A stretch of 64,000 bases of DNA, taken from sequence record OQ718158.1, one strand, 5' to 3'. The notes under the pieces were generated by a model that was given only the letters and a program-made list of their open reading frames with translations, searched no databases and was not told the origin of the DNA. The position numbers were made by a program, and so were the translations under genes. Shown here piece after piece: positions 399 through 47,058 of the stretch (within the stretch, counting starts at the first letter, position 1; each line of letters opens with the position of its first letter). Origin of the DNA: Escherichia phage vB_Ec-M-J.

Positions 399-791
399 AT
401 GACTGAATCAGAACTACATGAAATGATAGATTTCATTTATGAAATGATACAAGATAAAAATAACATCAATACAATTATTTCTGGTCCAAGACAAATTGGT
501 AATCAAATGACATATTCTTTATCTTTATGGATAAAACAGAACTACAAAGTTGATTGTTTGTATTTCCGTCCTGATATTGATGCTTATTATTTTGTCAATC
601 ATGATGCATTAATGAAACCAAATAAGCGTCCAGTTGATGATACCTTTGTGACACACCCATTTTACCTGGCTGATTCCGAAGAAGATGAGTTTCAAAAGAA
701 CACAACGTTAAGCCCAGGTGAAATTTGCATCCCTTACACACTAAAAGATAAAATGATTTACATCACAGAAGTTATGAAAACATGCTGGTAA
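399..791 (+). CDS. hypothetical protein (EE-FQ motif family)
   Basis: ORF with AAGGA SD; contains SEEDEFQKNT motif shared with dispersed paralogs. Confidence 0.65.
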   Translation: MTESELHEMIDFIYEMIQDKNNINTIISGPRQIGNQMTYSLSLWIKQNYKVDCLYFRPDIDAYYFVNHDALMKPNKRPVDDTFVTHPFYLADSEEDEFQKNTTLSPGEICIPYTLKDKMIYITEVMKTCW

Positions 792-839
792 GTGCAATGA
801 AACTCTGATATAATACAAATAATGATAATAGGAGGATAT

Positions 840-1058
840 ATGAAATTTATTAATTTTGATATTTCTAAGGTCAAAGAATTATTTGTAAGAAATGCAGTTT
901 ATGATATCATGTTACATAACGGTACTGTACAAGAAGATGTTGTATTGTTTTCGTTTGATGGTGAAAATCTCGAAACTATATATAAATTCAGCAACTTAGA
1001 TGGTGACTTTTGGGAAACCAGTGCTGTTAAAATGTATAGAATTAAAAAGGAGCAGTAA
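840..1058 (+). CDS. hypothetical protein
   Basis: ATG at 840 after AGGAGGA SD; track ORF 822 trimmed to SD-supported start. Confidence 0.6.
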   Translation: MKFINFDISKVKELFVRNAVYDIMLHNGTVQEDVVLFSFDGENLETIYKFSNLDGDFWETSAVKMYRIKKEQ

Positions 1059-1059
1059 T

Positions 1060-1548
1060 ATGCCAATTCGTGGTGTACCAGAACCATTAATGGAAGTTAT
1101 TAAGCATGTTCGCATTGGAGATCGAGAAGTTAATCTTCGCCGTAATAACATTTTTTACTTTAAAACTTCAGAAATGAGTTCTGTACAGATTGTCATTGGT
1201 ACATCTATTAAGATTACTCGTGTACTTGATGGTAGTACTGACTTCGTTGAATATAATGTACTTACTAATAAAGTAACGCATATATATAAATGGAGTGGGT
1301 ATAAAACTATTAAGTATGAATTTGACTTAGCTAGAACTGAAGAAGAACGATTTATGCTGAGTACTATCAATCCAGCAAACTATCCTGACCTTGATGCATT
1401 TTTGCTAATTTTAAAATTGTATAATGAAGCAAATCAGAAAGCCAAAGATTATGATAGAATCATGTATGAACGCCGAAAAGAACGTGCACAAAAAAGTTAT
1501 GATCTGTATGATAGCCCATACGTGAAATATAGTAAGGGGTCGAAATGA
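1060..1548 (+). CDS. hypothetical protein (EE-FQ motif family)
   Basis: ATG at 1060 after AAGGAG SD; TEEERFMLSTI motif. Confidence 0.6.
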   Translation: MPIRGVPEPLMEVIKHVRIGDREVNLRRNNIFYFKTSEMSSVQIVIGTSIKITRVLDGSTDFVEYNVLTNKVTHIYKWSGYKTIKYEFDLARTEEERFMLSTINPANYPDLDAFLLILKLYNEANQKAKDYDRIMYERRKERAQKSYDLYDSPYVKYSKGSK

Positions 1549-1949
1549 ATAAAGAAGTTCAAATTATCATAACTCCACCTATACAAAGTCTGGATGTATC
1601 CATTAGTGATTTTTTGGAAAAATACTATGAATGGTTTAATGAAGATTCAGTAATTTATAACCATTCATTACCTGATGGTTTCGTTGAGCTTATTGAATTA
1701 AATGCCAAATCACTATACTTCTGTGTTGAATACAATGATTATATGACAGATGAAGCATATCGTTTTCGTTGTACATTGTATCCTAACCATTTTTCCATTG
1801 GTTATAAAGACTATCAGTACTGCACCACAAACTATAGTGTAGAGGAAGAATTTCAGTACAATTTACTTTATCCTGATTTGGATTATACGATTGCAGTACT
1901 GTTGACTAAAATCATGGATTTTTATAAAGATAAATATAATGCAGCCTAA
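1545..1949 (+). CDS. hypothetical protein (EE-FQ motif family)
   Basis: ATGA overlap with upstream gene; VEEEFQYNLL motif. Confidence 0.6.
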   Translation: MNKEVQIIITPPIQSLDVSISDFLEKYYEWFNEDSVIYNHSLPDGFVELIELNAKSLYFCVEYNDYMTDEAYRFRCTLYPNHFSIGYKDYQYCTTNYSVEEEFQYNLLYPDLDYTIAVLLTKIMDFYKDKYNAA

Positions 1950-2124
1950 GACATTTGATGAGTGGTTTAATCTACACTATAATATAAATGCAGCAGATAT
2001 ATACTATTTTAAGCTTGAATTGTATATATCATTGCGTAACCCAATTGAGTACTATAACAACATTATCAATTGTGATGATTTTGGTACATATTTTAGTATA
2101 GCAGTCATGGACAAAATAAGATGA
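1939..2124 (+). CDS. hypothetical small protein
   Basis: 61-aa ORF overlapping neighbours. Confidence 0.45.
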   Translation: MQPKTFDEWFNLHYNINAADIYYFKLELYISLRNPIEYYNNIINCDDFGTYFSIAVMDKIR

Positions 2125-2294
2125 CACACAAAGAATGGTTAGATGAACTAAAATTTAAACATAATCCTTTTGGTTTTGGTATACGCCAAGGTCATTATGA
2201 TGTGTTAAAAGATAAACAACTTTTCAAATCATTTGTACTTGATGAGGATAGTAATCACTGGTACATCTATGAGCTTGCAATTAGGAAATAGAAG
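2121..2294 (+). CDS. hypothetical small protein, MTH(E/K)EW family
   Basis: 57-aa ORF, ATGA overlap; N-terminus MTHKEWLDEL similar to the tandem 54-aa genes at 3620-4106. Confidence 0.5.
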
Positions 2295-2301
2295 ATATAG
2301 T

Positions 2302-2651
<350 letters not shown>

Positions 2652-2664
2652 CGAGGAATCCAAA

Positions 2665-2862
2665 GTGACTAAAGCAGAACTTGTAGCATTATTGGAATCA
2701 TATCCCGATGATGCATGTATTGAAGTTGTTCATAGTGCGAGACATTTTGACATTGAAGATGTAGTACGTTATAATGATAAAGGTGTACTCATCATGGAAC
2801 TATGTATTGGTGAAATGAAAACTGTACCCGAATCAGAAAAACGTAAAAATAGTAAACCGTAA
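2665..2862 (+). CDS. hypothetical protein
   Basis: GTG start after ACGAGGAAT SD. Confidence 0.55.
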   Translation: MTKAELVALLESYPDDACIEVVHSARHFDIEDVVRYNDKGVLIMELCIGEMKTVPESEKRKNSKP

Positions 2863-2872
2863 GGAAAATAAA

Positions 2873-3091
2873 ATGGAATCTACTCTATTAGAAGTTATTA
2901 ACTCATTAAACGCTGGCGACAATGTTCAAGTACTCCTACAGGGATACCGTGTAAAAGGTTCAGTAGTTTTAGTTAATGACACCACTGTTGTTGTAACTGA
3001 AACTAACCCGTTTGACAGTAATGAACTTGCTAATATCCATATTGATATTAAAAGTATTATTGGTGTTGGTGTAACTAAACCACAAGAATAA
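2873..3091 (+). CDS. hypothetical protein
   Basis: AAGGAAAA SD then ATG. Confidence 0.6.
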   Translation: MESTLLEVINSLNAGDNVQVLLQGYRVKGSVVLVNDTTVVVTETNPFDSNELANIHIDIKSIIGVGVTKPQE

Positions 3092-3112
3092 CAATTGTTA
3101 TTGGGGATTACT

Positions 3113-3379
3113 ATGCATTTTGAAAAATTCAATACAAATCGTAACACACGCATTGACGTTCTTTATGAAACACAAGACTCAATAAGCATTCGTACACGTA
3201 GTGGTGATGTATATCATGACTGTACTATTGGTTGGGAACAGGGAAGAACACGTAGTGCAGAATTCGATAACTATCGCTTCTACCAAGGGGACACCACAAT
3301 CTGGCCTGAAGACGTAGAAGATATTGCGTTTGAAGATGAACATAAAGATGAATTTATAAAATTTAATCCCGAATCATAA
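3113..3379 (+). CDS. hypothetical protein
   Basis: ATG at 3113 after GGGGA; track start 3095 is TTG. Confidence 0.55.
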   Translation: MHFEKFNTNRNTRIDVLYETQDSISIRTRSGDVYHDCTIGWEQGRTRSAEFDNYRFYQGDTTIWPEDVEDIAFEDEHKDEFIKFNPES

Positions 3380-3396
3380 ATATTGGAACAGACTAT

Positions 3397-3512
<116 letters not shown>

Positions 3513-3516
3513 AAAT

Positions 3517-3602
<86 letters not shown>

Positions 3603-3619
3603 CAATTAAAGGTTAAACC

Positions 3620-3780
<161 letters not shown>

Positions 3781-3784
<4 letters not shown>

Positions 3785-3941
3785 CACATGAAGAATGGAT
3801 GAATGACATTAATTTTAGATATTCGGGTATCGGTAAATGGCTAAAGTATCATTGGGAATTCATTTCAGAGCCACATCTGTATGATAAACTTATCAACGAT
3901 CCAGCATATGAAATGTACTTAATTGAACTACTGGTACGAAT

Positions 3942-3945
<4 letters not shown>
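3781..3945 (+). CDS. hypothetical 54-aa protein, MTHEEW family copy 2
   Basis: Near-identical 5' half to copy 1; ATGA overlap. Confidence 0.55.
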
Positions 3946-4113
<168 letters not shown>

Positions 4114-4114
4114 G

Positions 4115-4536
<422 letters not shown>

Positions 4537-4540
<4 letters not shown>

Positions 4541-4565
4541 CTAAATAGTTCAGTACTGATATAAT
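4537..4565 (+). promoter_or_regulatory. sigma70-like promoter with cagtactg spacer
   Basis: TTGACT-N17-TATAAT. Confidence 0.6.
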
Positions 4566-4569
4566 GAAT

Positions 4570-4910
4570 TCCACAATCAGACGTATATGGTGTAAGTTAC
4601 GTCGATGTAATCCAGAACAAGATCTCTGGTACTCTAGGAAGTGGTGAATGTTAACCTAGACGGGTTTGATAATTGGACGATAGGCAATTATTACTTGACT
4701 AGCAGGTTTAAACTAGAGGTGACAGTCCTTTACCAAACTGGAAAACCGGATGGACTTTTATTTAAAAGGGTAAGGCGTGGAAATATGTTTACAGTAGTTG
4801 CTTTTAGTAGCCTGTACGCCCCACGTCAAGGTAGCCGAAAGGCAAGTTAAAACGGGTGGTTATAAAGCTGAATTAACAGCGGCGTTTAAAAGCGTCACCA
4901 TCCATTTTTT
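4570..4910 (+). ncRNA. candidate structured non-coding RNA (about 340 nt)
   Basis: Promoter-proximal, locally GC-richer, no convincing ORF, ends in T8 run. Confidence 0.3.
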
Positions 4911-4928
4911 TTAATTAAAGTTGGTGAT

Positions 4929-5568
<640 letters not shown>

Positions 5569-5572
5569 CAAA

Positions 5573-5730
<158 letters not shown>

Positions 5731-5755
5731 CAAAAAAAAACAATGAGAGGTATAA

Positions 5756-6253
<498 letters not shown>

Positions 6254-6254
6254 T

Positions 6255-6286
<32 letters not shown>

Positions 6287-6330
6287 GATTCCCGATTCAG
6301 TAGTTTTAAAGCAGACCCGTATGTGCCTAT

Positions 6331-6422
<92 letters not shown>

Positions 6423-6441
6423 AGAGGTACTTCGAGTATGC

Positions 6442-6493
<52 letters not shown>

Positions 6494-6582
6494 TCAGTAC
6501 TACTTTTTAATTGACATATCATTGGATGAGGTGTAATATGGTTCAAGAAGAAAACTGGGGTTTTTAACACAAAGAGGCCAAT

Positions 6583-6725
<143 letters not shown>

Positions 6726-6726
6726 A

Positions 6727-6766
<40 letters not shown>

Positions 6767-6882
6767 TCAGGTCGATTAGTTAAAAGAGTATAACACGGAC
6801 CTTGTAAGTCTGAATAATCAGTGCAATTCTGATATTGACCTCAAAAATGATATTTTTCTTACATATAAATACTCCATAATAT

Positions 6883-7290
6883 ATGGAGAACTATATGAAA
6901 GAAAAACGTTATTGTACATGTTGTAAAATTGAATTGGTTCGAAAGGGCCAAACAAAATATTGTAGTGTTGCATGTCAACAAGAGCTACAATATCAACAGA
7001 AAGTTGATAAATGGCTTAACGGTGAACATCCTGGATATAAAGGTATTACCATACAGTTATGTCCATTTGTGAGAAGATATCTACATGAAACACGCGGAAC
7101 TGCATGTGAAGAATGTGGATGGGATAAACGTCATCCAATAGATGGTGCAGTACTGACAGAAGTTGAGCACATTGATGGTGATGCTACAAATAATGACCTA
7201 CCAAATTTAAAAATCCTTTGCCCTAATTGTCATTCGATGACACCAACATTCAGAGCAAGGAACAAGAACTCCGCAAGGAATCGTAAATAA
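6883..7290 (+). CDS. HNH homing endonuclease
   Basis: N-terminal Cys cluster plus EVEHIDGD...NN...LCPNCHS HNH motif. Confidence 0.75.
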   Translation: MENYMKEKRYCTCCKIELVRKGQTKYCSVACQQELQYQQKVDKWLNGEHPGYKGITIQLCPFVRRYLHETRGTACEECGWDKRHPIDGAVLTEVEHIDGDATNNDLPNLKILCPNCHSMTPTFRARNKNSARNRK

Positions 7291-7306
7291 TTTTTTAAGG
7301 TACAAT

Positions 7307-7726
7307 ATGACATACAACATTGTTAAAATGGTGAACTACGTATTAAAAAACAACGCATGGTCACTGCATGATGTACAATTAGAAGATATTGGTGAAGTTA
7401 GAGTTTTTTGCTATGATGACGATTTGAACGAAACCACAGATTTGAGTAAATGTTTTAATATTTTTCTTGGTTATGAAATCGATAATCATTTTTATTCATT
7501 TGATGTGTATGTTGAACGAGTTAAAATCAGAATTTCTAATGTAAATAGTGATTATTTTGACACTATTATGATTGAATTGAATTTTGACGATATTGATACT
7601 GAAGAAAAATTCTTTCAGTACTGTCTCGTAAACGATCTAAATGGATTGACATTTGAGGACATTAAAGCTATACTTATAGTTCAAAGATTAATTCCAGAAG
7701 AGGTTATAAATCCCTTTAATGACTAG
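7307..7726 (+). CDS. hypothetical protein (EE-FQ motif family)
   Basis: TEEKFFQYCLVNDLNGLTFEDI motif; paralog of next gene. Confidence 0.6.
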   Translation: MTYNIVKMVNYVLKNNAWSLHDVQLEDIGEVRVFCYDDDLNETTDLSKCFNIFLGYEIDNHFYSFDVYVERVKIRISNVNSDYFDTIMIELNFDDIDTEEKFFQYCLVNDLNGLTFEDIKAILIVQRLIPEEVINPFND

Positions 7727-8078
7727 TTTAATAACTCGTATAATGCAAGATGTTCGTAAGAATCTTCATACTGGTAATTTTGATGATCCTAACATAAAAA
7801 TATTATGTTATGATGTATTCACACTGGTACACCCATCTGAATCTAATAATATATACATAGCATATACTTCTCCTAATATTTTGTATCAATTTGACTTATA
7901 TAGTACAATGGCTAAGATAACATTAGATGTTTCTAAGGAGCCATTTTTTATAGCAGTACGTGATTTTGAGTACACAGAAGAGTCATTATTCCAGTACTCA
8001 ATGATAAATGACATTGGTGACTTGACATTAGAAGAGATAAATGTTATAGTTGGTATGTGTCGTTTGATTAATCCATAA
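7719..8078 (+). CDS. hypothetical protein (EE-FQ motif family)
   Basis: TEESLFQYSMINDIGDLTLEEI motif; overlaps upstream gene by 8 nt. Confidence 0.6.
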   Translation: MTSLITRIMQDVRKNLHTGNFDDPNIKILCYDVFTLVHPSESNNIYIAYTSPNILYQFDLYSTMAKITLDVSKEPFFIAVRDFEYTEESLFQYSMINDIGDLTLEEINVIVGMCRLINP

Positions 8079-8726: not shown

Positions 8727-8756
8727 TTGACATTTTTACTTCTACTGTGTTATACT
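8727..8756 (+). promoter_or_regulatory. sigma70-like promoter
   Basis: TTGACA-N18-TATACT. Confidence 0.5.
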
Positions 8757-8759
8757 TAA

Positions 8760-8795
8760 GGCTGATTCATTATGAATCGGCCTTTTTTCTTGTGG
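8760..8795 (+). terminator. hairpin plus T-run immediately downstream of promoter (attenuator-like)
   Basis: ggctgattca..tgaatcggcc stem followed by TTTTTTC. Confidence 0.4.
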
Positions 8796-8806: not shown

Positions 8807-9223
8807 ATGAATAAAGAAGTTATTAGTTTAATGGATGAGTATATCAACCAAACATATCGTTTTATATTTTTTAATGCATTTGAGTCCAGGACAACGTATC
8901 ATTCTGGTGAATATGAGATAATAACTGGATCATTTCTTAACGGATACATGGAGTTTTTAGAACAAAGCGATAATGTTTTCATTTCCATATCTGAAAAACA
9001 TGGTGATGATTATGTTATTGATGTATGGCCTAATAAAGTAGAGATTGACACTACAAAGAAAATTGTAATTGATGTGGACGAATCATTGTATGATTTAACT
9101 GAAGATATGTATATGCAACTAAATTTCGTATACGATCTAACTAACATAAGTTATTCTAATCTAAGTAAATTATTTTATATTTGTGGTGTACTACATAAAA
9201 ACGTACAACAAAATAAAGGATAA
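8807..9223 (+). CDS. hypothetical protein (EE-FQ-like motif)
   Basis: ATG at 8807 (MNKEV); track ORF 8747 trimmed; TEDMYMQLNFVYDLTN motif. Confidence 0.55.
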   Translation: MNKEVISLMDEYINQTYRFIFFNAFESRTTYHSGEYEIITGSFLNGYMEFLEQSDNVFISISEKHGDDYVIDVWPNKVEIDTTKKIVIDVDESLYDLTEDMYMQLNFVYDLTNISYSNLSKLFYICGVLHKNVQQNKG

Positions 9224-9234: not shown

Positions 9235-9263
9235 TTGACAATTGACAACATAAATGGTATCTT
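9235..9263 (+). promoter_or_regulatory. sigma70-like promoter
   Basis: TTGACA-N17-TATCTT with TG extension. Confidence 0.4.
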
Positions 9264-9295: not shown

Positions 9296-9703
9296 ATGGT
9301 CAAAATTTTAAGTGACAATGCGGTTGATATTGTCATTGATGTACTTGAAAACAGTAATACATTTGAGAAGAAACACAGTACTGTATACTTCGGTAAAGAT
9401 TGTTGGCTGAACTATACATCTGATAGTTCATTTATAATTCGTGTTGAGAAGGGTGATATTGGATTAACGATACATGCTTCCTATACTAAAACAATCACTG
9501 TTATTGCCAACAAGCCAAGTACTTCTGATTTCTGGGATAGAATTGATGATTGTGACCATTTCATGTCAACATTCTATAAAACAGAAGAAGAACATTTCAT
9601 GGATAGTACTGTCAAAGAATTAGCTATTCCATTTAAACTTATGAAAGCAGCAAGAGATTTTATTTTAAAATACAAAAAAATAGGAGTTGATGATGCAATT
9701 TAA
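9296..9703 (+). CDS. hypothetical protein (EE-FQ motif family)
   Basis: ATG after ACGAGGAAT; KTEEEHFMDSTV motif; alternative start at 9254. Confidence 0.5.
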   Translation: MVKILSDNAVDIVIDVLENSNTFEKKHSTVYFGKDCWLNYTSDSSFIIRVEKGDIGLTIHASYTKTITVIANKPSTSDFWDRIDDCDHFMSTFYKTEEEHFMDSTVKELAIPFKLMKAARDFILKYKKIGVDDAI

Positions 9704-18231: not shown

Positions 18232-19200
18232 GTGAAAAAGCTTGATTTAAATGCAATTTCTGAAGAAGTACTGGATGAGTGTTTTGCTAGTGAAGAAGTC
18301 AACGTATTAGAGGCTCTTGATTCCGTAGAAGAAGAAGAAGAACATGACGGTCACAAGTTTGAGAAACCAAAAACAGGTATCAGCTTAACTCGCCCTAAAG
18401 GGATAACGAATGAAATGCTCATCCAAGCAGTGCGTGATGGCATAGACGTTAAAAAGAACATTGACCTTTTGGTTCGCTACAACTATCCAATGGTAGTAAG
18501 TGTTGCACGTAAGTGTACATGTTTTATCCCATTTGAAGATAAGATTTCTTATGGTGTTGAAGGTTTAATGCGAGCAATTCATACGTTCGACACTACCAAA
18601 AATGTTAAGTTCATTACATATGCAACAACAACTGTGTACATGACAATCTATAACGAAAGTGCAGATGCTAATTATCTAGTGCATTTCCCACGTTATATGA
18701 GTGTTAATAACATTTATGTGAAACGTTGTGTTGAAGAGTATCAAAGGAAACATGGTAAATACCCAACTCCTGAGATGGTGTCAAAAGAGACTGGTATTGA
18801 GATTCAACACGTTAAGAATTGTCTAACTTACAATAACACTTATGTAGCATTGAATATGAAAATGAGTAATGATTCAGAAAGTACATTATCTGACATTGTT
18901 ACTTCAGTTGAACCTGATTACAACTTAGGTGTAGAAACTGTCAGTACCCCACTGGTACAAAGTATTGCAGAAATGATGAGTAACCTATCTACCAAAGACC
19001 GTGAATTGATTGAACGTGTACATGGTATTGGTTCTTATTCTGAACCAGAAACGCTACGAGAAATCATTGAGAGTGGTTTTGAAGATGAGAAGGGTAAGGT
19101 CATGACTGCTCGTTCTTCATTGCACCGTAAGTACTCTGAAGCAATGGAACGACTGCGTAAGATGGTTAAGACAAAAGGTTATGAGTTCGAAGATTTTTAA
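18232..19200 (+). CDS. RNA polymerase sigma factor, sigma-70 family (phage-encoded)
   Basis: GTG start after AGGAGAAG; region-2-like GVEGLMRAIHTFD...KFITYATTTVYMTI and region-4-like LSTKDRELIERVHGIGSYSEPETLREI; acidic N-terminus. Confidence 0.6.
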   Translation: MKKLDLNAISEEVLDECFASEEVNVLEALDSVEEEEEHDGHKFEKPKTGISLTRPKGITNEMLIQAVRDGIDVKKNIDLLVRYNYPMVVSVARKCTCFIPFEDKISYGVEGLMRAIHTFDTTKNVKFITYATTTVYMTIYNESADANYLVHFPRYMSVNNIYVKRCVEEYQRKHGKYPTPEMVSKETGIEIQHVKNCLTYNNTYVALNMKMSNDSESTLSDIVTSVEPDYNLGVETVSTPLVQSIAEMMSNLSTKDRELIERVHGIGSYSEPETLREIIESGFEDEKGKVMTARSSLHRKYSEAMERLRKMVKTKGYEFEDF

Positions 19201-35086: not shown

Positions 35087-35425
35087 ATGGAACAACATTT
35101 TGAATTAATTAATAAGGTATCATTTTATGTAGTATCATTAATTTGGGTGTATTACATGTTTTGTTACATTATTGCATTCTTCCGATACACGACCTTGTAT
35201 CAACGCATATACTACGATGCACCCATTTCATTTATGATGTTCTGTGCATGTACGTGGGGGATAATTGAAGCACTGGTATGTGGATATAGTACTGACGAAT
35301 TAAATCTCGTATCGGGGTTGACATTACTAACAATTGCCATTATGATAGCTACTGTTCCGATATTTTTGCTCTTTAAACTGCTTCATCGTATCGATGAGTG
35401 GCGTAATAAAATCCCTGAAAAGTAA
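35087..35425 (+). CDS. small 3-TM membrane protein, family copy A
   Basis: Three hydrophobic helices; C-terminal WRNKIPEK. Confidence 0.6.
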   Translation: MEQHFELINKVSFYVVSLIWVYYMFCYIIAFFRYTTLYQRIYYDAPISFMMFCACTWGIIEALVCGYSTDELNLVSGLTLLTIAIMIATVPIFLLFKLLHRIDEWRNKIPEK

Positions 35426-35434
35426 GGATTGATA

Positions 35435-35776
35435 ATGATTTTTTACACTAATGCGTTTGCTTATGCCGTTGCATCAATCTACATTGTGTACTTCTTATTT
35501 GGTGGAGTACTGTACTTCTTTAAGTACAAAACATTGTTTAACCGAATGTATCCAAATCACCCAATTGTAGTAGTACTTTTGATGATTTCTGTTGCTCACA
35601 TCATTGTAGAAACAATAATGGGTATCAGTGCAGTACATTACAGTCTAGGTACTATTGTGATTATTACTATGATCATCGCATACATTTTAGTAATGGGTTC
35701 TGGTTTATTTGGGAATGTAGCAATGAAATTGTATAATCGAATTAAAACCTTACGTGATAATCTACCGGAGCGTTGA
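35435..35776 (+). CDS. small 3-TM membrane protein, family copy B
   Basis: C-terminal LRDNLPER; tandem to copy A. Confidence 0.6.
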   Translation: MIFYTNAFAYAVASIYIVYFLFGGVLYFFKYKTLFNRMYPNHPIVVVLLMISVAHIIVETIMGISAVHYSLGTIVIITMIIAYILVMGSGLFGNVAMKLYNRIKTLRDNLPER

Positions 35777-35777
35777 G

Positions 35778-36122
35778 ATGTATAATTTAAATTTAATCTC
35801 ATATATCATAACAACACTGTTTACTTTCTATACCTTTGTCGGTATACTCCTACTGTACTTTAAATTTTATAAACTCTTTGACCGTTTATATCCATCATTG
35901 GAACATGAATTCTTATTGGTGATGTACATCTGTTTAACGTGTATGTCTACATTTTTCACTGTATTTGATGGTATCATCGGTATTAAAGCTGAAGATCCAA
36001 ATGGCAGTACACTTGTTGCCTTTATCCTGGTAGGATTCTTCGGTACTTATATCACTTTCATTTCAACATGGTCTGTGGTTGATTATCTCATTAGATTACG
36101 AGATAAAATGCCAAATCGATAG
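35778..36122 (+). CDS. small 3-TM membrane protein, family copy C
   Basis: C-terminal LRDKMPNR; ATG 2 nt after upstream stop. Confidence 0.6.
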   Translation: MYNLNLISYIITTLFTFYTFVGILLLYFKFYKLFDRLYPSLEHEFLLVMYICLTCMSTFFTVFDGIIGIKAEDPNGSTLVAFILVGFFGTYITFISTWSVVDYLIRLRDKMPNR

Positions 36123-38533: not shown

Positions 38534-38947
38534 ATGAAGAAGTGTATCACGTGTAATATTGAAAAAGACATTAGTGAATTTGGTATAAGAAGTGATACTG
38601 GGAAACATAGAAATACATGCAAAGGTTGTAGTAATATTACCAGTAAGAAAACCAGAAATAAAAAAACTGATGTCAAAAAACTTGAAGAAATCAAAAGAAA
38701 AAATAAAGATTTCATGACCAGAGTTAAATCATTTTATGGTTGTAGTGTTTGTATGATGAAGTATCCAGAATGTTTAGACTTTCACCATCTTGACCCTAAT
38801 ACCAAAGAACATACACCAAGTTCTATGTTCAGTAAAAGTCGAGATGCTATCAAAGATGAAATTCGAAAGTGTATGATTCTTTGTTCTAATCACCATCGCA
38901 TGGTACATTCTGGTAGACTATGTTTGATTGAAAGAAAAAAGGGTTGA
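38534..38947 (+). CDS. HNH homing endonuclease
   Basis: CxxC pairs plus DFHHLDPNTKEH...ILCSNHHRMVH; stop codon lies within the -35 of the next cassette. Confidence 0.7.
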   Translation: MKKCITCNIEKDISEFGIRSDTGKHRNTCKGCSNITSKKTRNKKTDVKKLEEIKRKNKDFMTRVKSFYGCSVCMMKYPECLDFHHLDPNTKEHTPSSMFSKSRDAIKDEIRKCMILCSNHHRMVHSGRLCLIERKKG

Positions 38948-39001: not shown

Positions 39002-39517
39002 ATGACACGCATTAACTTAGTACACGTTAAAGAACTTGCTGACCAACATCTGATGGCTGAATATCGTGAACTCCCACGTGTGTTTGGTGCTGTACAAAAA
39101 CATGTTCAAGCACGTAAGCGAGTCCGTGATTTCAAAATTAACAGTACTTACCTGTTAGGTTCAGGTCATGTAACATTCTTCTACAACAAGTTATTGTACT
39201 TACAGAAGCGTCATATTGATATTGTTAACGAATGTTTGCGTCGTGGTATGAAGATTCAAAACACTGAAGTAAACGACATTAGCGGATTCCCTGCTGAGTT
39301 TTGTAATGACTACGTACCATCGGAGTCAGAGATTAAAATGTCTCGTGAGCGTTTGATTGAGAAGCTCCAGATGAAGCCTACGTGGTATAAATTTACTGAC
39401 GTTGAACGCCCACAGTACGTTAAAGATATGCAGGACGTAAGTAGTAATATAGAATCTAGTACTGATATGTTAGACGAAATTGAAGAACAAATCAAAGATG
39501 AAATGAATAATTATTAA
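39002..39517 (+). CDS. denV: endonuclease V (pyrimidine-dimer DNA glycosylase/AP lyase), T4 DenV homolog
   Basis: N-terminus [35 protein letters not shown]...RVRDFKI...GHVTFFY closely matches T4 endonuclease V as recalled from memory. Confidence 0.8.
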
Positions 39518-39830: not shown

Positions 39831-39856
39831 GTACATCACCAAATGAGGAATACCAC

Positions 39857-40216: not shown

Positions 40217-40410
40217 TTAAAACTTTTATTCTTACTATGGTATTTGGGTCTTATGGGTATGGTGGTGGTGTAGCAACAGTTGAGTATCCATTATACGAAG
40301 ATTGTAAGGCCGCCGCTGAAGTGTTTGTAAAAACAACCAAAGATTTAGCAACTGTCACTGATGCAAAAGCTTGGTGTACAACTAAAAATACACCAGAAAC
40401 TAAGAAATAA
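40213..40410 (+). CDS. hypothetical secreted/membrane protein
   Basis: ATGA overlap; hydrophobic N-terminus. Confidence 0.5.
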   Translation: MIKTFILTMVFGSYGYGGGVATVEYPLYEDCKAAAEVFVKTTKDLATVTDAKAWCTTKNTPETKK

Positions 40411-40418
40411 AAAATAAA

Positions 40419-40451
40419 GGGTTGACTTCGGTCAGCCCTTTTTGCTATAAT
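40419..40451 (+). promoter_or_regulatory. PeSL-like promoter/UUCG-hairpin cassette
   Basis: Near-identical copy of cassette at 38941 and 41830. Confidence 0.65.
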
Positions 40452-40477
40452 TATTTCATCAACTGATGAGGTAACAA

Positions 40478-40714
40478 ATGAAACTATCTTTTATACGATT
40501 AGCTGAATTTTTCGGTACTAATGTAATTACTCTACAACAAATCGCAGATAATACATCATTAACTACTCAAGAAGTACTTGACTTAGATGTAATTCAGTGC
40601 GATAATACTTCCATCGATTACAAAGAAGGTCTTGTCGAAAAAGATAAGATTCAAGCTAAGATTAATGGTGCTGGACGGGTTCAGTACTGGAAAGGAGTTT
40701 TAAGTAATGTATAA
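40478..40714 (+). CDS. hypothetical protein
   Basis: GAGG SD in conserved cassette leader. Confidence 0.55.
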   Translation: MKLSFIRLAEFFGTNVITLQQIADNTSLTTQEVLDLDVIQCDNTSIDYKEGLVEKDKIQAKINGAGRVQYWKGVLSNV

Positions 40715-41822
40715 ATTTTATTTTAATGACGATGGTGAAAAAGTTTATTTCCACGAAGAACTTGGTATGCGTTTTGAATGGATGCACGCGGAAGACATTG
40801 AACAATTTTCTTGTGGAAAAACTGCCAAAGACCACGTTGATGACATAGAGGCATCATTCTATGATTTAGGAATAACTGATATCACAATTTTGGGTATTGG
40901 TGTGTCAAACGCAGCTGAATTTGGTATTTCTGGAAATTCACATGCTAAAATCGTCTTAAAAAAAGACGATATCATCTATAATAATTATAAAATAACTGCT
41001 TTTAAAACAAAGCTTAATAAGTTGTCAGAAGGTGATGGTATTAAGTTATCTTTTTCATACACAAATGATAATTATTACTATTACGTAACCAAACTTGCAA
41101 AATTACAATCTAAAAACTGTCATATACATCCAAATGAAATAATTGATAATGGAATTTCATCTAAAATAAAATTCACATATAGTGATGGTGTAACTGTACC
41201 TAGAAGAATAAATGATATATTGACAAAAACTAAAATTAATGTGAGTTATTTTGTAGATGATGATATTAGAGATGGGGTAGCTTTAAATCGATGTAGAGAA
41301 TTGAAATATCATTTTCAGTCTATTTACAAGCATGAGAATGGACGATACTTTGTAAAATATGAGTGTACTAGAGGTCATCAATGTGATCAAGACTATCATG
41401 CATTTACTGGTACAGCGAAGCAATCATGTGGTGTGTGTTCTAAACTTAAGACACACTCATATGGTCATAATGATACCATGAAATTTTTAAGGAATTTGCA
41501 TATTACAATAACGGAAAAAACTTTCAATGATTTGAAAGATAAAATGAAACTTCCATATGATTTTTATGTGAAAGATTTAAATGCGTTGATAGAATATGAC
41601 GGTAGTGATCATTTTAAAAATAAGTCATCTCGAAACAATTTTATTGATCGTCAGAAGAAAGATAAAATGAAAACGGAGTACGCAATCAACAATGGATATA
41701 ACTTCCTACGAATTGCATATTATGAAGGTCATCTTGAAGTACTGGAATCTTTCCTGAAACTCATCGAAGAGAACCCAGGAAAGCAAATCGTACAGATTTA
41801 TGGTGATGTGAAAATCATCTAA
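40707..41822 (+). CDS. putative nuclease with C-terminal Vsr/DUF559-like domain
   Basis: C-terminal ALIEYDGSDHF...RQKKD...NGYNFLRI pattern plus internal Cys cluster; family assignment from memory. Confidence 0.4.
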   Translation: MYKFYFNDDGEKVYFHEELGMRFEWMHAEDIEQFSCGKTAKDHVDDIEASFYDLGITDITILGIGVSNAAEFGISGNSHAKIVLKKDDIIYNNYKITAFKTKLNKLSEGDGIKLSFSYTNDNYYYYVTKLAKLQSKNCHIHPNEIIDNGISSKIKFTYSDGVTVPRRINDILTKTKINVSYFVDDDIRDGVALNRCRELKYHFQSIYKHENGRYFVKYECTRGHQCDQDYHAFTGTAKQSCGVCSKLKTHSYGHNDTMKFLRNLHITITEKTFNDLKDKMKLPYDFYVKDLNALIEYDGSDHFKNKSSRNNFIDRQKKDKMKTEYAINNGYNFLRIAYYEGHLEVLESFLKLIEENPGKQIVQIYGDVKII

Positions 41823-41829
41823 AACAAAA

Positions 41830-41862
41830 AGGGTTGACTTCGGTCAGCCCTTTTTGCTATAA
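41830..41862 (+). promoter_or_regulatory. PeSL-like promoter/UUCG-hairpin cassette
   Basis: gggTTGACTtcggtcagccc hairpin, T-run, TATAAT, leader catttcatcaactgatgagg. Confidence 0.65.
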
Positions 41863-41891
41863 TCATTTCATCAACTGATGAGGATAACGAA

Positions 41892-42662
41892 ATGACCAGA
41901 GAAGCACGTAGCATTCAAATCCAGAAAAACTTCAACTCCATGATGGTTGCTCTTGAGTGTTTGCTCGACGATAACAGTACTGTAAAAAGTATGGTTGTCA
42001 GCGGTGCACCTGGTGTTGGTAAGACTTACACCCTGTCACAACGCCTCCAGAAAGCTCATGACGCAGCAGAATGGAACGTAGCTACTATCAGTGGTAAGAT
42101 GACTACTCTTGCTCTGTACGAAGTTCTGTACAAGAATCGTCACAGCACTAACGTATTAGTACTGGATGATATGGACAGCATCTTTGATTCAGAAGACGGT
42201 ATGAACCTGCTCAAAGCAGTACTGGACAGCGGTAAACGTACTGTGTCTTACATGACTAGCTCTAAGTACTTAACTACCAACGGTATCCCTAACAGCTTTG
42301 ATTTTAACGGTCGTATCGTATTCATTACTAACAAAGATTTAGCACTGAATGCTAAAGCTAAAACCAAAATGTCTGCTCACTATGCTGCTCTTATGTCTCG
42401 CTCTGTGTATGTTGACTTACAGATCCAGACTAAAAGCGATATCATGATTCACATTGAAAACGTAATGAACAAGACCAACATCCTGTCAACTAAAGGTGTT
42501 AATAGTAATGGTAGCAAAGCAATCCTGAATTGGATGCTGAAACATGAAGATGCACTTCGTGCCCCTTCACTGCGTATGCCTCTGTTGATTTCAGCAGTAT
42601 ACAACAACAACCCGTATGATTGGGAAGAGCAGTGCGAAAACTTGTTCCTTGAGAAAATTTAA
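41892..42662 (+). CDS. P-loop NTPase (AAA-like ATPase)
   Basis: Walker A SGAPGVGKT, Walker B VLVLDDMD, sensor-like RIVFITN. Confidence 0.65.
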   Translation: MTREARSIQIQKNFNSMMVALECLLDDNSTVKSMVVSGAPGVGKTYTLSQRLQKAHDAAEWNVATISGKMTTLALYEVLYKNRHSTNVLVLDDMDSIFDSEDGMNLLKAVLDSGKRTVSYMTSSKYLTTNGIPNSFDFNGRIVFITNKDLALNAKAKTKMSAHYAALMSRSVYVDLQIQTKSDIMIHIENVMNKTNILSTKGVNSNGSKAILNWMLKHEDALRAPSLRMPLLISAVYNNNPYDWEEQCENLFLEKI

Positions 42663-42729
42663 TTACATGTATTGACAGCACTACACTATGGTAGTACTAT
42701 AACTTAATATTCACCACCGGAGATACGAT

Positions 42730-43068
42730 ATGCTTGAGTTTTTTAATTCAGATACAATGCTTAGTATTACTTTGATTTATCTGTTTGGTTTTTTCTTTTA
42801 TCATGCACTAGTTGTAGTACTATGGTATTTTAAAAAGAAAATTGTTTTCAAACTGTATCCTGATGGAAATATTTCACTACTTCTTTTCACTATTATCCAA
42901 GGTATGTTTGCAATTGTTGGTCTTATCGCACACTTAATTTATTGTGCTAATCCACAGTTGAACTCAATATCACAATATATTGTTTTCCTTGGATTACTAA
43001 TTTGGGTGCTGATATACTTGTTTAATCTCATCATTAATGGTAGAGCAAAAATTCGTGGGGACTTCTAA
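42730..43068 (+). CDS. small 3-TM membrane protein, family copy D
   Basis: GGAGA SD; three hydrophobic helices. Confidence 0.6.
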   Translation: MLEFFNSDTMLSITLIYLFGFFFYHALVVVLWYFKKKIVFKLYPDGNISLLLFTIIQGMFAIVGLIAHLIYCANPQLNSISQYIVFLGLLIWVLIYLFNLIINGRAKIRGDF

Positions 43069-43415
43069 TGTTTGAATCTTATCTTGAGTTTTTAAAGAGT
43101 AGTTCTGTTGCACATTCAATTGCAGGGATTATTCTAACAGGTTATGTAACATTTTGGGTAGTTATGTTTCTAGGATGGTATTTTAAACGACAATTCTATA
43201 AGCGTAATGGTGAAGATTTTATGAATTCTTTCATTAATCAATCGTTGTTTGCATCAACATTGATAGCATGTATTGTAGCAACACTCACAGGAAAGGTACT
43301 GCCAGCATTCTCCGCAGTTTACGGTACATTGGGTATGATATGTGTAGTTTTTTACTTGACCATTAAACTTTGTTGTGTTATGATTGAACTTCGAAACAAG
43401 ATACCGGAGGAATGA
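43068..43415 (+). CDS. small 3-TM membrane protein, family copy E
   Basis: TAATG coupling; C-terminal ELRNKIPEE. Confidence 0.6.
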   Translation: MFESYLEFLKSSSVAHSIAGIILTGYVTFWVVMFLGWYFKRQFYKRNGEDFMNSFINQSLFASTLIACIVATLTGKVLPAFSAVYGTLGMICVVFYLTIKLCCVMIELRNKIPEE

Positions 43416-43750
43416 TGGAATATTTTTTACACTTACTGCCGTGGTATATGAAAGTTAGTACTATGTACTATATTCTTAGTGCTGGATTCTACTTTCTGAT
43501 GTGGTTCTTCAAACGACCAATTTCAGTATTCATCTCTGATAACATGCTGCAATTAAAATTACACGCATGGTTTTTTATGGCGATGTTTATGCCTATTATT
43601 CACTACTCAATGATTAGTAGAGGTTTACGTTCTAATGGTGAACCAATTATATTAGTATTCTATTGGGGTTCAACTATTGCATATGTAAGTTTGTTGTTGA
43701 TCCCAGCCGTTCATAAATTGCGTTCTAAAGTTCCTGATGCGAGGTACTAA
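43412..43750 (+). CDS. small 3-TM membrane protein, family copy F
   Basis: ATGA coupling; C-terminal HKLRSKVPDARY. Confidence 0.6.
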   Translation: MMEYFLHLLPWYMKVSTMYYILSAGFYFLMWFFKRPISVFISDNMLQLKLHAWFFMAMFMPIIHYSMISRGLRSNGEPIILVFYWGSTIAYVSLLLIPAVHKLRSKVPDARY

Positions 43751-44064
43751 TGGATATCGTAACATTGATTTACACGTTGTATTCATTCTATTTTATTATG
43801 TGTTGGGTTGGATTTTTATTTGTACTGAAAATGTTTGATTATGTTGAAAAACAGATAAAAGAATTTTGTATTCCTTTTATTGGGTCAACCATAATTAGTA
43901 TTACTTGTTTGTATTATTTGGTATGTGATCCACCTGTTAATACAGCAATGATTGACTTCATGTTATTACCAACAACTGTTATTTTTTTATGTAGTCTGAT
44001 GCCACCGATTAGTCGTGGGCTAACCGAATTTAGACGCAATCAAAAGCGTAAACGAGGGATGTGA
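43750..44064 (+). CDS. small membrane protein, family copy G
   Basis: TAATG coupling; basic C-terminus. Confidence 0.55.
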   Translation: MDIVTLIYTLYSFYFIMCWVGFLFVLKMFDYVEKQIKEFCIPFIGSTIISITCLYYLVCDPPVNTAMIDFMLLPTTVIFLCSLMPPISRGLTEFRRNQKRKRGM

Positions 44065-44432
44065 TGGAAATTGCACTTATTATATTAACTGCTATGTTGT
44101 TTATTAGTACAATTGTTATTATTGGCAAGTTCTTCTGTGTATCCTTCTTGGAAACCGTATACGATGAAATTGCTGATGATTATGAATTACATGCGGGATT
44201 TTTTACTACGTATTGGATTAGTTTATTACTACTTATCACTGTATGGATTTTACATATATTCAAATGGGGTATGGTAGATGGTGATCCAGTACTGGCAATT
44301 ATCTGTGTAGTGTTTGGTCTACTCGGTGGTGCTGTCCATAATCTGATGGTAATTTGGCAAACCGTACAATATGTATTAGTTCCACATTTTCAGAGAATGC
44401 ACCAAAGCATCAAATACCGCAAACGAGGATAA
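44061..44432 (+). CDS. small membrane protein, family copy H
   Basis: ATGA coupling; basic C-terminus. Confidence 0.55.
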   Translation: MMEIALIILTAMLFISTIVIIGKFFCVSFLETVYDEIADDYELHAGFFTTYWISLLLLITVWILHIFKWGMVDGDPVLAIICVVFGLLGGAVHNLMVIWQTVQYVLVPHFQRMHQSIKYRKRG

Positions 44433-44433
44433 C

Positions 44434-44796
44434 ATGAATAATATTGAATTATCTTTTATTGGTCAATTAATGGTAATGGCGTATACATTTATCTTCTCAC
44501 TGAATGCATTCGTGTGCATTGGGAAGTACTTCCATAAGCGACCATTATCAAATATATATGATGTAATACAAAGGAGATATAGTCCAGCATATACTGTGTT
44601 GAGTACAGCATTCAATTTTGGTTTTATTCTAATGCTGGTTGCATTATTAACATCGAGTTCGAATTTTATAACATTTGGTATTATGGTATGTTCACTAACA
44701 CTGTGTGTGGTTATTCTCTGTGCATCAGTTGAGTTGATGGCGTGGATGTATAATAAGATTTCCGAAATCCATGAGCGTTTAGGTAAGAGGAACTAA
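44434..44796 (+). CDS. small membrane protein, family copy I
   Basis: GAGGA SD; basic C-terminus. Confidence 0.55.
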   Translation: MNNIELSFIGQLMVMAYTFIFSLNAFVCIGKYFHKRPLSNIYDVIQRRYSPAYTVLSTAFNFGFILMLVALLTSSSNFITFGIMVCSLTLCVVILCASVELMAWMYNKISEIHERLGKRN

Positions 44797-44797
44797 A

Positions 44798-45169
44798 ATG
44801 AGTTATCGTGAAATATTTTCGATCATTACTATTATTGTGTTTAGTTTAGGTTCTTTGATTTGGTTATTGTATTACTTCTGTGTAACCCCAGTATATAATA
44901 TGCTAAATTCAGTACGCTCTGATGTTGGTATTGTTTCTTTTATTATCTTCATGGCATATTATATGCTAAGTATCACAGGTTTGGTTTTGGTTGTTATCTT
45001 TGACCTTGGACCGAATCAAGATGGTATGGAGGTGTGGGAATTGATAACGATGTTTGCATGTATGATACCTGCATTTGGTGTATGTGCTGGTGTATTTTAT
45101 GGGTTATGTAAAGGTGTGAACTACTTAAAAAATATCCACAATACTATTCGTAAAAAACGTATGTTATAA
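44798..45169 (+). CDS. small membrane protein, family copy J
   Basis: AGAGGAA SD; basic C-terminus. Confidence 0.55.
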   Translation: MSYREIFSIITIIVFSLGSLIWLLYYFCVTPVYNMLNSVRSDVGIVSFIIFMAYYMLSITGLVLVVIFDLGPNQDGMEVWELITMFACMIPAFGVCAGVFYGLCKGVNYLKNIHNTIRKKRML

Positions 45170-45172
45170 TAA

Positions 45173-45205
45173 AAAATCCAGTACTATAATAGTACTGGAT
45201 TAATT
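45173..45205. terminator. bidirectional terminator between convergent blocks
   Basis: ccagtactataatagtactgg palindromic hairpin flanked by A/T runs. Confidence 0.6.
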
Positions 45206-46330
45206 TTAATTATCTAAGCCACCAATTACACTGAACTGTGTGGTAACGTCTGAACTATTATCTATGTAAGTTCTTCGACCAACATAATATAGTTGTCCTT
45301 TTGCTTGAATAAAAGTTACGGTCCCTGTATTGAATGTTATAATATCATTGTATGTAATGTCAGGTGGTAGTGCTGCTGATAATGCAGTAACAGCACTTAA
45401 TGCAGCACTAGCACTACCATTTATACCAGCAGCAATACTACCAGTACCATAGAACTTATTATCTTTACCAATGAATACGTTGGCTGATGCTTGTGTAGCT
45501 GATGTTATTGCCTTACCAATTTGGAATGCGGTTCCTATGGTGTATGGTGTGCTCCTGGCTGCGTCTATGCTTTGTGTATATCCATCCCCTAGCTGACCAT
45601 TAACTTTGTCACCACATGAGTATAGAGTACCATTGAGGCTGTATATGATCCCACGGTTAGAGAAGCTAACAGCTTCTGCATTAGTCCATACTGGTGCGGT
45701 GTATGAGTTTACACGACTAGCGGTAGTTCCTAGACCTAGTATACCATATGTGTTATCACCACATCCAAACCATTGTCCAGAACTGTTTTGATAGAACACT
45801 GAACGTTCTGTTGATTCCATGCGTACAGCATCCACAGCACCACTTTTAACGAACGAAGTGGATGAGGATGTAGTACCAGTACCCAATGCACCATAAGTGT
45901 TTGTACCAATCGCATAGATTGATCCTAGTGGTGTCATAACACGTATGCAGTTATATCCCAATTGAACTTTACATTCAAATAGGTTGTCCCATATTTCAGG
46001 AACAGCAGAAAATAAATTTGTAATTTCGAACCATGATGTTGTCGAACCAGTTAATCCTATACTGCTTTTGTTTCCTAAAATGAAAACAGTTTTGTCCTTC
46101 TTAATTATCCATGATGATAGAAAGCCTATCTCACAGCTATGAACATTTGATTCGATTTGGGTAATATAATACTTAACGGTGTTATCACCCATAAATGCCG
46201 CAGCACCAGATGCAAAAAGGTTTCCAGTTTGTTTATTTAAAATGTAGTTATTGTTTCCATATACACTAACATCATAAGAACTTTCTTGTTTTTCGTTCCC
46301 ATAATCAAATAACAATACGAAAGGTAACAT
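45206..46330 (-). CDS. MLPF-family beta-propeller protein, paralog 1 of 15
   Basis: N-terminus MLPFVLLFDYGNE; RCC1-like blade CGDKVNGQLGDG; AAGGAG SD. Confidence 0.7.
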   Translation of the reverse strand: MLPFVLLFDYGNEKQESSYDVSVYGNNNYILNKQTGNLFASGAAAFMGDNTVKYYITQIESNVHSCEIGFLSSWIIKKDKTVFILGNKSSIGLTGSTTSWFEITNLFSAVPEIWDNLFECKVQLGYNCIRVMTPLGSIYAIGTNTYGALGTGTTSSSTSFVKSGAVDAVRMESTERSVFYQNSSGQWFGCGDNTYGILGLGTTASRVNSYTAPVWTNAEAVSFSNRGIIYSLNGTLYSCGDKVNGQLGDGYTQSIDAARSTPYTIGTAFQIGKAITSATQASANVFIGKDNKFYGTGSIAAGINGSASAALSAVTALSAALPPDITYNDIITFNTGTVTFIQAKGQLYYVGRRTYIDNSSDVTTQFSVIGGLDN

Positions 46331-46407
46331 GATAAAATCTCCTTGTGTTATACTTTATTTAATCATTTTATAATGTACAATTTTACAGCGATTTAATTGA
46401 GGTACTC
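46331..46407. promoter_or_regulatory. divergent promoter region
   Basis: A/T-rich 77-nt spacer between divergent starts, SD on each side. Confidence 0.4.
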
Positions 46408-47058
46408 ATGAATAAAAGAAGTAAGTTCTATCAAGAATATTTCACTAAACAGAAACGATTCACAAAAAAATACTTTACATCATCCCACCGACCAGTTGCA
46501 AGTTACAAACGTCCTAATACTAACTATCTTACTGGTGGCAAGTTTAGTGCAAAGTTCGAATTACTTATGCGTGAAAAGAATATCAAGATGCATTACGCAG
46601 AGACAAGAAAAAACTCATCAATTATTTGTTCTGATTTTCTTGAGTACGGTTGCTTAACTTATAAATTCAATGATGTATATTTGTATATTGATGTTGATTG
46701 TAACAGTACTCGTATGTTTGAGATTTCAATTCACCCAAATCACAACCGTTATATAAACATTAACTTGGTTGATAAAGTACTGATTGGTATATCTAGTACT
46801 GATGGTGGTGGATTTGAATTTATTGCTTCAAAATATGATGAAGATTTCGTACTTTACCCAGTACTTGATGATGTGAAAGATATTCTCAATTCATTAAAAG
46901 GAAGTCAATACAAATTATCTGAAGAACAGCTATTTCAGTACTCACTTATTCATGATGATATCGAGATATACTTAGAGTGTGCGAGAATCTTGGAGTATCT
47001 TTATAATGAACTAACAACAACTGGTAAAGTGACAGCATTCACATTATATAATATGTAA
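46408..47058 (+). CDS. hypothetical protein (EE-FQ motif family) embedded in the minus-strand array
   Basis: GAGG SD; SEEQLFQYSLIHDD motif. Confidence 0.6.
   Translation: MNKRSKFYQEYFTKQKRFTKKYFTSSHRPVASYKRPNTNYLTGGKFSAKFELLMREKNIKMHYAETRKNSSIICSDFLEYGCLTYKFNDVYLYIDVDCNSTRMFEISIHPNHNRYININLVDKVLIGISSTDGGGFEFIASKYDEDFVLYPVLDDVKDILNSLKGSQYKLSEEQLFQYSLIHDDIEIYLECARILEYLYNELTTTGKVTAFTLYNM

Follow-up and report, generated by a model that had tools for sequence, protein, structure and literature searches.

We analysed a stretch of 64 000 nucleotides from Escherichia phage vB_Ec-M-J (sequence record OQ718158.1), referred to below as the window, and found that 12 genes dispersed along its plus strand between positions 399 and 47058 encode small proteins that share a glutamate-rich motif in their C-terminal part and are otherwise strongly diverged. 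The motif family is real and chance is excluded as its source: these genes are part of a large, lineage-specific family of paralogs in which a C-terminal module of two helices is the conserved element. The family is new and unnamed, and the category into which it falls, the paralogous accessory genes of jumbo phages, is a familiar one. A sequence-only reading of the window had proposed a dispersed family of at least 11 diverged paralogs with a C-terminal motif. Independent genomes, an exhaustive profile search and structure models support such a family; the number stands as a lower bound, the family being far larger and running past the left edge of the window.

Evidence for the family

All 12 of the open reading frames listed by the earlier reading exist on the plus strand, with the coordinates given below, and every one of them carries the motif, which is found at a relative position of 0.57-0.79 (about 70% along the protein) and 34-70 residues before the C-terminus (n = 12). 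The strict pattern [ST]EE.{1,2}F[QM] occurs in eight of the 124 window proteins, whereas 1000 composition-preserving shuffles gave 0.03 on average and never more than 1, and a loose pattern, which was fitted after the fact, matches exactly the 12 listed proteins, where the shuffles gave 0.35 on average and at most 3. A count of BLOSUM neighbours of single seeds was only marginally above the shuffles; it was dominated by aromatic-rich seeds and by a paralog array on the minus strand, and was replaced by the pattern shuffles and by independent profiles. Together with the independent genomes described below, the shuffles exclude a motif occurring at chance frequency, the finding by which the family would have fallen.

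In leave-one-out profiles, each omitted member ranked first against about 223 other open reading frames, a test that is partly circular because the members had been picked by the motif. Masking of the motif left no leave-one-out signal except for the pair F7307/G7719, the flanks alone gave none, and a family profile restricted to the N-terminal part, with the motif and the C-terminus removed, raised just F7307, G7719 and H8807 above noise. The proteins are indeed otherwise diverged, as had been claimed; outside the C-terminal ~45 residues, similarity between subfamilies is undetectable by sequence, with the exception of the tandem pair F7307/G7719 (32% identity over 129 residues, E 1.5e-11).

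A profile of the members searched against phage sequences, which the earlier reading had suggested as a check, picked out further small proteins with the motif in Cronobacter phage GAP32 and Yersinia phage fHe-Yen9-04, with about eight matches at E ≤ 1e-3 in the 40 kb taken from each. When 1.84 billion representative proteins were searched exhaustively with a profile, 83 clusters scored E ≤ 1e-3; nearly all have 105-196 residues and match at the C-terminus, and the sole exception, a plant formin-like protein, was taken as spurious. A homolog collection with a family alignment yielded only 62 candidates, mostly close orthologs. The stricter of two independent profiles was built from 23 members without a BLAST link to any window protein, and it recovered nine window genes at E 2.7e-9 to 2e-4, with noise starting at 0.38. 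The wider one, built from 74 non-window members, matched 11 of the 12 window genes at E ≤ 0.0063, with many alignments covering almost the whole model, and no other window open reading frame passed. Judged by a significant match to a profile built without the tested sequence, membership is therefore established for 11 of the 12 genes, the exception being A399, which is only a probable member. Judged by the signature described below, at 30-70 residues from the C-terminus and followed at a fixed spacing by a second amphipathic helix, all 12 window proteins and all 74 other aligned members fit.

The individual genes are as follows, with E values given first for the 23-member and then for the 74-member profile. 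D4175 (4175-4540; 121 residues; motif TEEEYFQTST from nucleotide 4433) is a canonical member (E 4.3e-6 and 2e-10), and its tblastn matches in GAP32, Pectobacterium phage CBB, Yen9-04, 7t3 and Kae01 are centred on the motif region. Close to the family consensus is G7719 (7719-8078; 119 residues; TEESLFQYSM from 7974), which gives an E of 3.6e-7 with the 23-member profile and matches phrog_17453, of unknown function; its tandem neighbour F7307 (7307-7726; 139 residues; TEEKFFQYCL from 7598) scores 1.4e-7 and 3.5e-17. The top independent score belongs to I9296 (9296-9703; 135 residues, or 149 if the start is 9254; TEEEHFMDST from 9581), with an E of 2.7e-9 and positions 4-133 of the 23-member profile aligned. 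H8807 (8807-9223; 138 residues; TEDMYMQLNF from 9098), previously listed only as probable, was confirmed (E 1.3e-4 and 7e-8); it matches the metagenomic protein P0036 in BLAST (E 1.4e-9 over 116 residues), and its start at 8807 is backed by the database protein P0021. In the same way, the start of B1060 (1060-1548; 162 residues; TEEERFMLST from 1336; E 1e-4 and 8e-9) at 1060 is backed by the database protein P0023; this protein has a basic C-terminal tail, and BLAST links it over its full length to P0101, P0033 and P0044, which are metagenomic members. E4929 (4929-5300; 123 residues; AEDEFQKST from 5190) aligns over nearly the full 23-member profile (E 3e-6; 0.0063 with the wider one).

Three members are more dispersed. 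J23831 (23831-24346; 171 residues; TEESVFQQSL from 24179) scores 3.2e-5 and 1.4e-5. K29743 (29743-30315; 190 residues; NEEEYFQESI from 30178; E 0.033 and 4.9e-5), with BLAST links to P0050, P0070 and P0080, and L46408 (46408-47058; 216 residues; SEEQLFQYSL from 46918; E 2e-4 and 3.6e-5), with a BLAST match to P0052 (E 2e-6 over 141 residues), both carry a basic N-terminal extension. Two further members are diverged. C1545 (1545-1949; 134 residues; VEEEFQYNL from 1839) also belongs to the family, with profile support that is weaker but positive (E 0.17 and 0.0028, the latter alignment extending over nearly the whole profile). For the probable member A399 (399-791; 130 residues; SEEDEFQKNT from 675), the 23-member profile gave an E of 1.1, which is not significant, and hhalign a P of 0.003 over the motif only.

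Conserved positions, predicted fold and known families

The aligned database matches yield the family signature hPYxx[ST]-E-E-x-[YFL]-F-Q-x-S-[TL]-[VI]-x-D-h-x-x-[LI]-[TS]-h-E-[DE], in proteins of about 105-220 residues that are usually acidic and have neither a signal peptide nor a membrane segment. The columns of the alignment conserved at 75% or more are T/S86 (91%), E87 (87%), E88 (94%), F91 (98%), Q92 (89%), S94 (88%) and D98 (75%), and positions 89 and 93 are variable. Conservation in the N-terminal two thirds is confined to hydrophobic positions, helix 1 and strands 2-4 of the predicted fold keeping their hydrophobic periodicity.

Structure prediction, likewise suggested as a check, was run on G7719 and A399, each with a family alignment, and both models show the same topology of one helix, four strands and two helices. 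The AlphaFold2 model of G7719, for which an 86-sequence family alignment was supplied, has a mean predicted local distance difference test score (pLDDT) of 77.9 and a predicted template modelling score (pTM) of 0.69, with helices at residues 4-18, 87-96 (the motif) and 104-117 and strands at 26-30, 45-51, 54-60 and 65-69. That of A399 (pLDDT 80.8, pTM 0.77) has the topology H-E-E-E-E-(h)-H-H, with the motif helix at 94-103 and pLDDT above 90 in the C-terminal module; its alignment contained the family, and the model is therefore biased towards it. Across the two models the motif helix has a pLDDT of 84-96. We infer a fold in which a helix at the N-terminus, an antiparallel sheet of four strands and two helices at the C-terminus make up one alpha/beta domain, with the signature predicted to run from helix 2 through the following turn into the first part of helix 3. 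Drawn as a helical wheel, the motif has its conserved residues around Phe91 and its variable ones on the opposite face. It would thus be a capped helix that packs on the sheet with Phe91 and the aromatic residue before it; the Thr/Ser and the glutamates would form an N-terminal capping box, and the conserved Glu, Gln, Ser and Asp would share a helix face with the Phe.

No known family accounts for these proteins. None of 86 members matched Pfam at E ≤ 0.01, the 12 window genes giving only scattered matches at E > 0.08; NCBIfam and PADLOC gave isolated, chance-level matches only, the best E of a sequence profile search of the PDB was 1.7, and the predicted fold found no match in the PDB. The structural neighbours found in BFVD are uncharacterised proteins of CBB, GAP32, Yen9-03/04, Erwinia phage pEa_SNUABM_47 and RaK2. 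A resemblance to the MAM33/p32/gC1qBP fold, which is acidic and also has a helix, a sheet and two helices, was considered and rejected, as neither a match to PF02330 nor the seven-stranded sheet of its trimeric ring was found. In the SUKH/Imm immunity arrays of bacterial polymorphic-toxin loci, small and often acidic alpha+beta proteins are encoded by long tandem series of strongly diverged copies, an arrangement that reflects a variety of binding targets. These arrays, like the multigene families of large DNA viruses, are analogous only; there is no sequence or fold match between SUKH/Imm proteins and the family, and no toxin partner is known.

The same proteins are already present in PHROGs, in which they are spread over at least 30 unlinked groups, all of unknown function and without a description of the motif (phrog_17453, 24321, 24941, 30746, 23322 and at least 25 others); window members match their own group at E 1e-35 to 1e-111, with weak cross-matches between groups. 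Gene duplication has been noted in this phage lineage: about 10% of the gene products of RaK2 are paralogs (PMC3622015), and 22 paralogous open reading frames were reported for CBB (PMC5259590). The phenomenon is the same, but the passages of the two papers on paralogs, duplication and promoters, and for CBB also on motifs, do not describe the family, its motif or its size, and we found no description of it in those parts of the literature on these phages that deal with such matters. Unlike the family profile, paralog detection at the level of BLAST misses most members.

Distribution, genome setting and promoters

The first 10 kb of the window are matched by Escherichia jumbo phages of the PBECO4/121Q group, and the window is that of an Asteriusvirus (PBECO4/121Q-like) jumbo phage. 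Identity over these 10 kb is as high as 97.6% (EC.P1); most relatives cover just 49-84% of them, and gene content here thus varies between close relatives. In 121Q, the 49 kb just upstream of the window equivalent hold at least 10 further members (genes 80, 83-88, 93, 94 and 96), which together with the window genes makes at least 22 members per Asteriusvirus genome. GAP32 and Yen9-04 have about 8-10 copies each, and CBB has at least five. Among metagenomic contigs, L004 contains 16 members in a 20-kb piece, and in L005 (logan:SRR26954460) 34 of 36 consecutive genes are members of 165-225 residues (20.5 kb of 53 kb), the pairs detectable by BLAST having a median identity of 34%; to our knowledge, this is among the longest tandem paralog arrays met in any phage contig. 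A third contig, L006, has at least seven members, and between two of them lies a 74-residue gene (4354-4578) with a precomputed match to Acb2_Tad1_hairpin (PF24729), an anti-defence family. To all appearances, the family is restricted to the RaK2-like jumbo phages of Enterobacterales, among which are Asteriusvirus, Mimasvirus, Eneladusvirus, RaK2 and uncultured relatives.

The GC content of the window is ~35%, and its genes lie on the plus strand as far as ~47 kb. Five tRNA genes occur between 3.4 and 6.8 kb, with a tRNA-Ser at 5332, after E4929. In GAP32, CBB and Yen9-04 a tRNA-Cys gene is overlapped by the 3' end of a member of ~210 residues (L001 34539-35168, with the tRNA-Cys at 35155; likewise in L002 and L003), an overlap suggestive of co-transcription followed by processing. 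The family as a whole has no special link to tRNA genes: by a rough count from the annotation table, three of the eight GAP32 family genes are followed by a tRNA, compared with about 28% of all coding sequences in the stretch.

The plus strand of positions 1-47100 holds 28 sigma-70 sites in which 11 or all 12 consensus positions are matched, all co-oriented with the genes, compared with none on the minus strand and 1.9 expected. Sites of this strength lie directly upstream of D4175, G7719 and H8807. Several sigma-70 sites have the extended form TTGACTAAATAGTTCAGTACTG(A)TATAAT. Several family genes had been said to sit just downstream of CAGTACTG-type promoters. This is true of D4175 alone, directly upstream of which a sigma-70-type promoter (4116-4143, plus strand; TTGACT-N16-TATAAT) carries CAGTACTG in its spacer, and it does not hold for G7719, H8807 and I9296, whose plus-strand sigma-70 promoters have no CAGTACTG: a near-consensus site at 7646-7674, within the 3' end of F7307 and upstream of G7719; another at 8727-8756, upstream of H8807 and followed by a hairpin at 8758-8784; and a promoter-like 10/12 site at 9235-9263, upstream of I9296. 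Upstream of A399, the AGTACTG word lies inside a terminator-like hairpin. Because the genes lie in a strongly sigma-70-promoted region, they are probably transcribed by host RNA polymerase at the start of infection, as far as promoter consensus can tell. The orthologous region of CBB (CBB_390-546) is treated as the presumed early host-takeover region in the relevant part of the CBB paper (PMC5259590), and in the CBB record the family genes are annotated as 'hypothetical protein', in contrast with other genes of the same stretch, which are annotated as 'structural protein'. The family has a median isoelectric point (pI) of 4.78 and a net charge of -8, compared with a median pI of 6.46 for the window genes; B1060, K29743 (pI 9.3) and L46408 are neutral to basic (pI 7.6-9.3) and bear extra terminal extensions.

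The word AGTACTG occurs 178 times in the window, compared with 9.4 expected, and CAGTACTG 42 times, compared with about 0.7; the palindromic AGTACT(G) is found in promoter spacers, in terminator-like hairpins and inside genes. An excess of AGTACT is common to every locus examined, in GAP32, CBB, Yen9-04 and metagenomic relatives, which suggests that AGTACT(G) serves the whole lineage as a site of recognition or modification and not just as part of promoters. Six of the 12 window members have AGTACT across the codons that follow F-Q, five of them as the 7-mer AGTACTG or CAGTACT, giving Q-Y-S/C (CAG TAC T..) or S-T (AGT ACT). This overlap results from a general codon-pair bias towards the word: genome-wide, S-T is encoded as AGT-ACT in 78 of 173 cases (27 expected) and Q-Y as CAG-TAC in 19 of 46 (5 expected).

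The region shared with the motif family also contains a gene at 18232-19200 that we take from its translation to encode a sigma-70-family sigma factor, two presumed HNH-type endonuclease genes (6883-7290 and 38534-38947) and a presumed T4 endonuclease V-like gene (39002-39517), likewise recognised from their translations. On the minus strand, 45206-64000 is occupied by an array of ~16 paralogous proteins of ~375 residues, all starting MLPF(V/A)R(M/L)(F/V)(D/K)YGN, and L46408 lies between two of its genes; this is probably the array of closely related genes that figures in the discussion of tail 'hairy whiskers' in the phAPEC6 paper. On the plus strand, 35087-36122 (three genes) and 42730-45169 (seven genes) encode small hydrophobic proteins of about 104-123 residues, many of which end in a similar basic tail, for example ..LR(N/D)K(I/M)P(E/N)(R/K); to judge from their translations, these appear to be membrane proteins that make up another family of paralogs. 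For 121Q (gene 48; L007 12462-13007), the annotation includes a ClpS-like protease adaptor as well as IF3-like and DnaJ-like proteins, a few tens of kb upstream of the family cluster.

Possible roles of the family

The reading that we favour, tentatively and without calling it probable, is that the family consists of stoichiometric binding proteins for host takeover or counter-defence, made early and in the cytoplasm and encoded by one fast-diverging multigene family. Transcribed by host RNA polymerase as infection begins, the proteins would act as binders in stoichiometric amounts and not as enzymes. The conserved C-terminal module would keep the scaffold together and would possibly touch a shared partner, and it would be the N-terminal two thirds, hypervariable between paralogs, that direct each one to a separate host target, for example a defence protein or another host protein. 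We favour such a role because the proteins are small and acidic, because the family has undergone massive expansion and fast divergence with variable gene content, and because one Acb2/Tad1-like gene is adjacent to members. Several points weigh against it. There is no characterised homolog and no fusion to a known domain, and the adjacent anti-defence gene, seen in L006 only, is anecdotal. Early timing is read from promoter consensus alone, and non-virion status from the annotation of the CBB record. Burial of residues is deduced from helical periodicity, both models were built with family alignments, and N-terminal homology between subfamilies is beyond the reach of sequence methods. Finally, polar conservation as strong as that at E87, E88, Q92, S94 and D98 is found more typically in functional sites than in pure scaffolds, and these residues may serve a shared ligand or partner, or even catalysis.

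The main rival, which we consider unlikely, is that the proteins are modular adaptors, the two-helix module docking to a single machine of host or phage origin (for example RNA polymerase, a protease or a modifying enzyme) and the N-terminal part picking the substrates, by the same logic as in the viral F-box/PRANC families. The focus of conservation on about 45 C-terminal residues, surface-type polar ones among them, would suit such adaptors, as would N-terminal parts diverged past detection, a very large copy number and the extra N- or C-terminal extensions of some members. However, there is no candidate for the partner, AlphaFold packs the module on the sheet as a single domain, and the helix varies on the face that points away from the invariant Phe, so that the conservation could be mostly structural.

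Module shuffling, a protease site and a DNA artefact or chance are progressively less likely than such adaptors. A short C-terminal module spread by recombination onto unrelated N-terminal domains, in place of whole-protein paralogs, would explain why only F7307, G7719 and H8807 rise above noise once the motif and C-terminus are removed, and why the flanks carry no leave-one-out signal. We nevertheless regard it as more doubtful still, because protein lengths and the position of the motif are alike across members, the same N-terminal helix and four strands are predicted in two distant members, BFVD alignments cover most of both proteins (120-144 columns including gaps) in members that are 13-16% identical, many profile alignments extend over nearly the whole model, and helix 1 and strands 2-4 share a conserved hydrophobic periodicity.

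It is very improbable that the motif is a site of proteolytic processing, either TEV/NIa-like or one whose glutamates serve a prohead protease of the T4 gp21 type. The TEV/NIa site is ENLYFQ/S, with the pattern E-x-x-Y-x-Q/S, and the family sequence EEEYFQxS fits E-x-x-Y-x-Q; however, the motif is predicted as a well-packed helix with high pLDDT, the residue after the Gln (P1') is variable and the Ser comes one position late, the P3 Tyr is present in just 27% of members, and the CBB record gives the family genes no structural annotation. No 3C-like protease turned up, in work that included no search aimed at one, and we know of no cognate protease for the motif. A motif arising by chance or as a by-product of AGTACT(G) or some other nucleotide signal is hardly credible and is effectively refuted: although the word lies over the codons after F-Q in half of the window members and recurs there in other phages, the core T-E-E-x-x-F-Q is upstream of it and uses synonymous codons freely, the word appears in two different frames and at two different offsets, codon-pair bias accounts for the overlap, and the shuffles and the independent profiles and genomes exclude chance.

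More than 80% of the genes of RaK2-like jumbo phages are without an assigned function, the figure for phAPEC6 being 83% of gene products (PMC7247149). The present results bring together 22 or more genes of each Asteriusvirus genome, and no fewer than 30 PHROG groups, as a single family that has a clear signature and a predicted fold. Filling up to 34 of 36 consecutive genes, located in the early region and varying between close relatives, the family is a leading candidate for host-range or counter-defence determinants. Several such phages are under development for therapy against E. coli, Klebsiella and Salmonella, and the family profile offers a direct route to annotating members and choosing paralogs. 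A more far-reaching and distinctly doubtful reading, set beside the favoured one of early binding proteins, is that the family is the phage counterpart of the F-box/PRANC adaptors or of immunity-protein arrays: in dozens of paralogs, one conserved C-terminal module for docking or scaffolding would be combined with an N-terminal sheet, hypervariable between copies, by which each captures its own host defence protein or toxin. If this were true, the genomes of RaK2-like jumbo phages would include a ready-made library of binders against host defences, built on a previously unseen fold.

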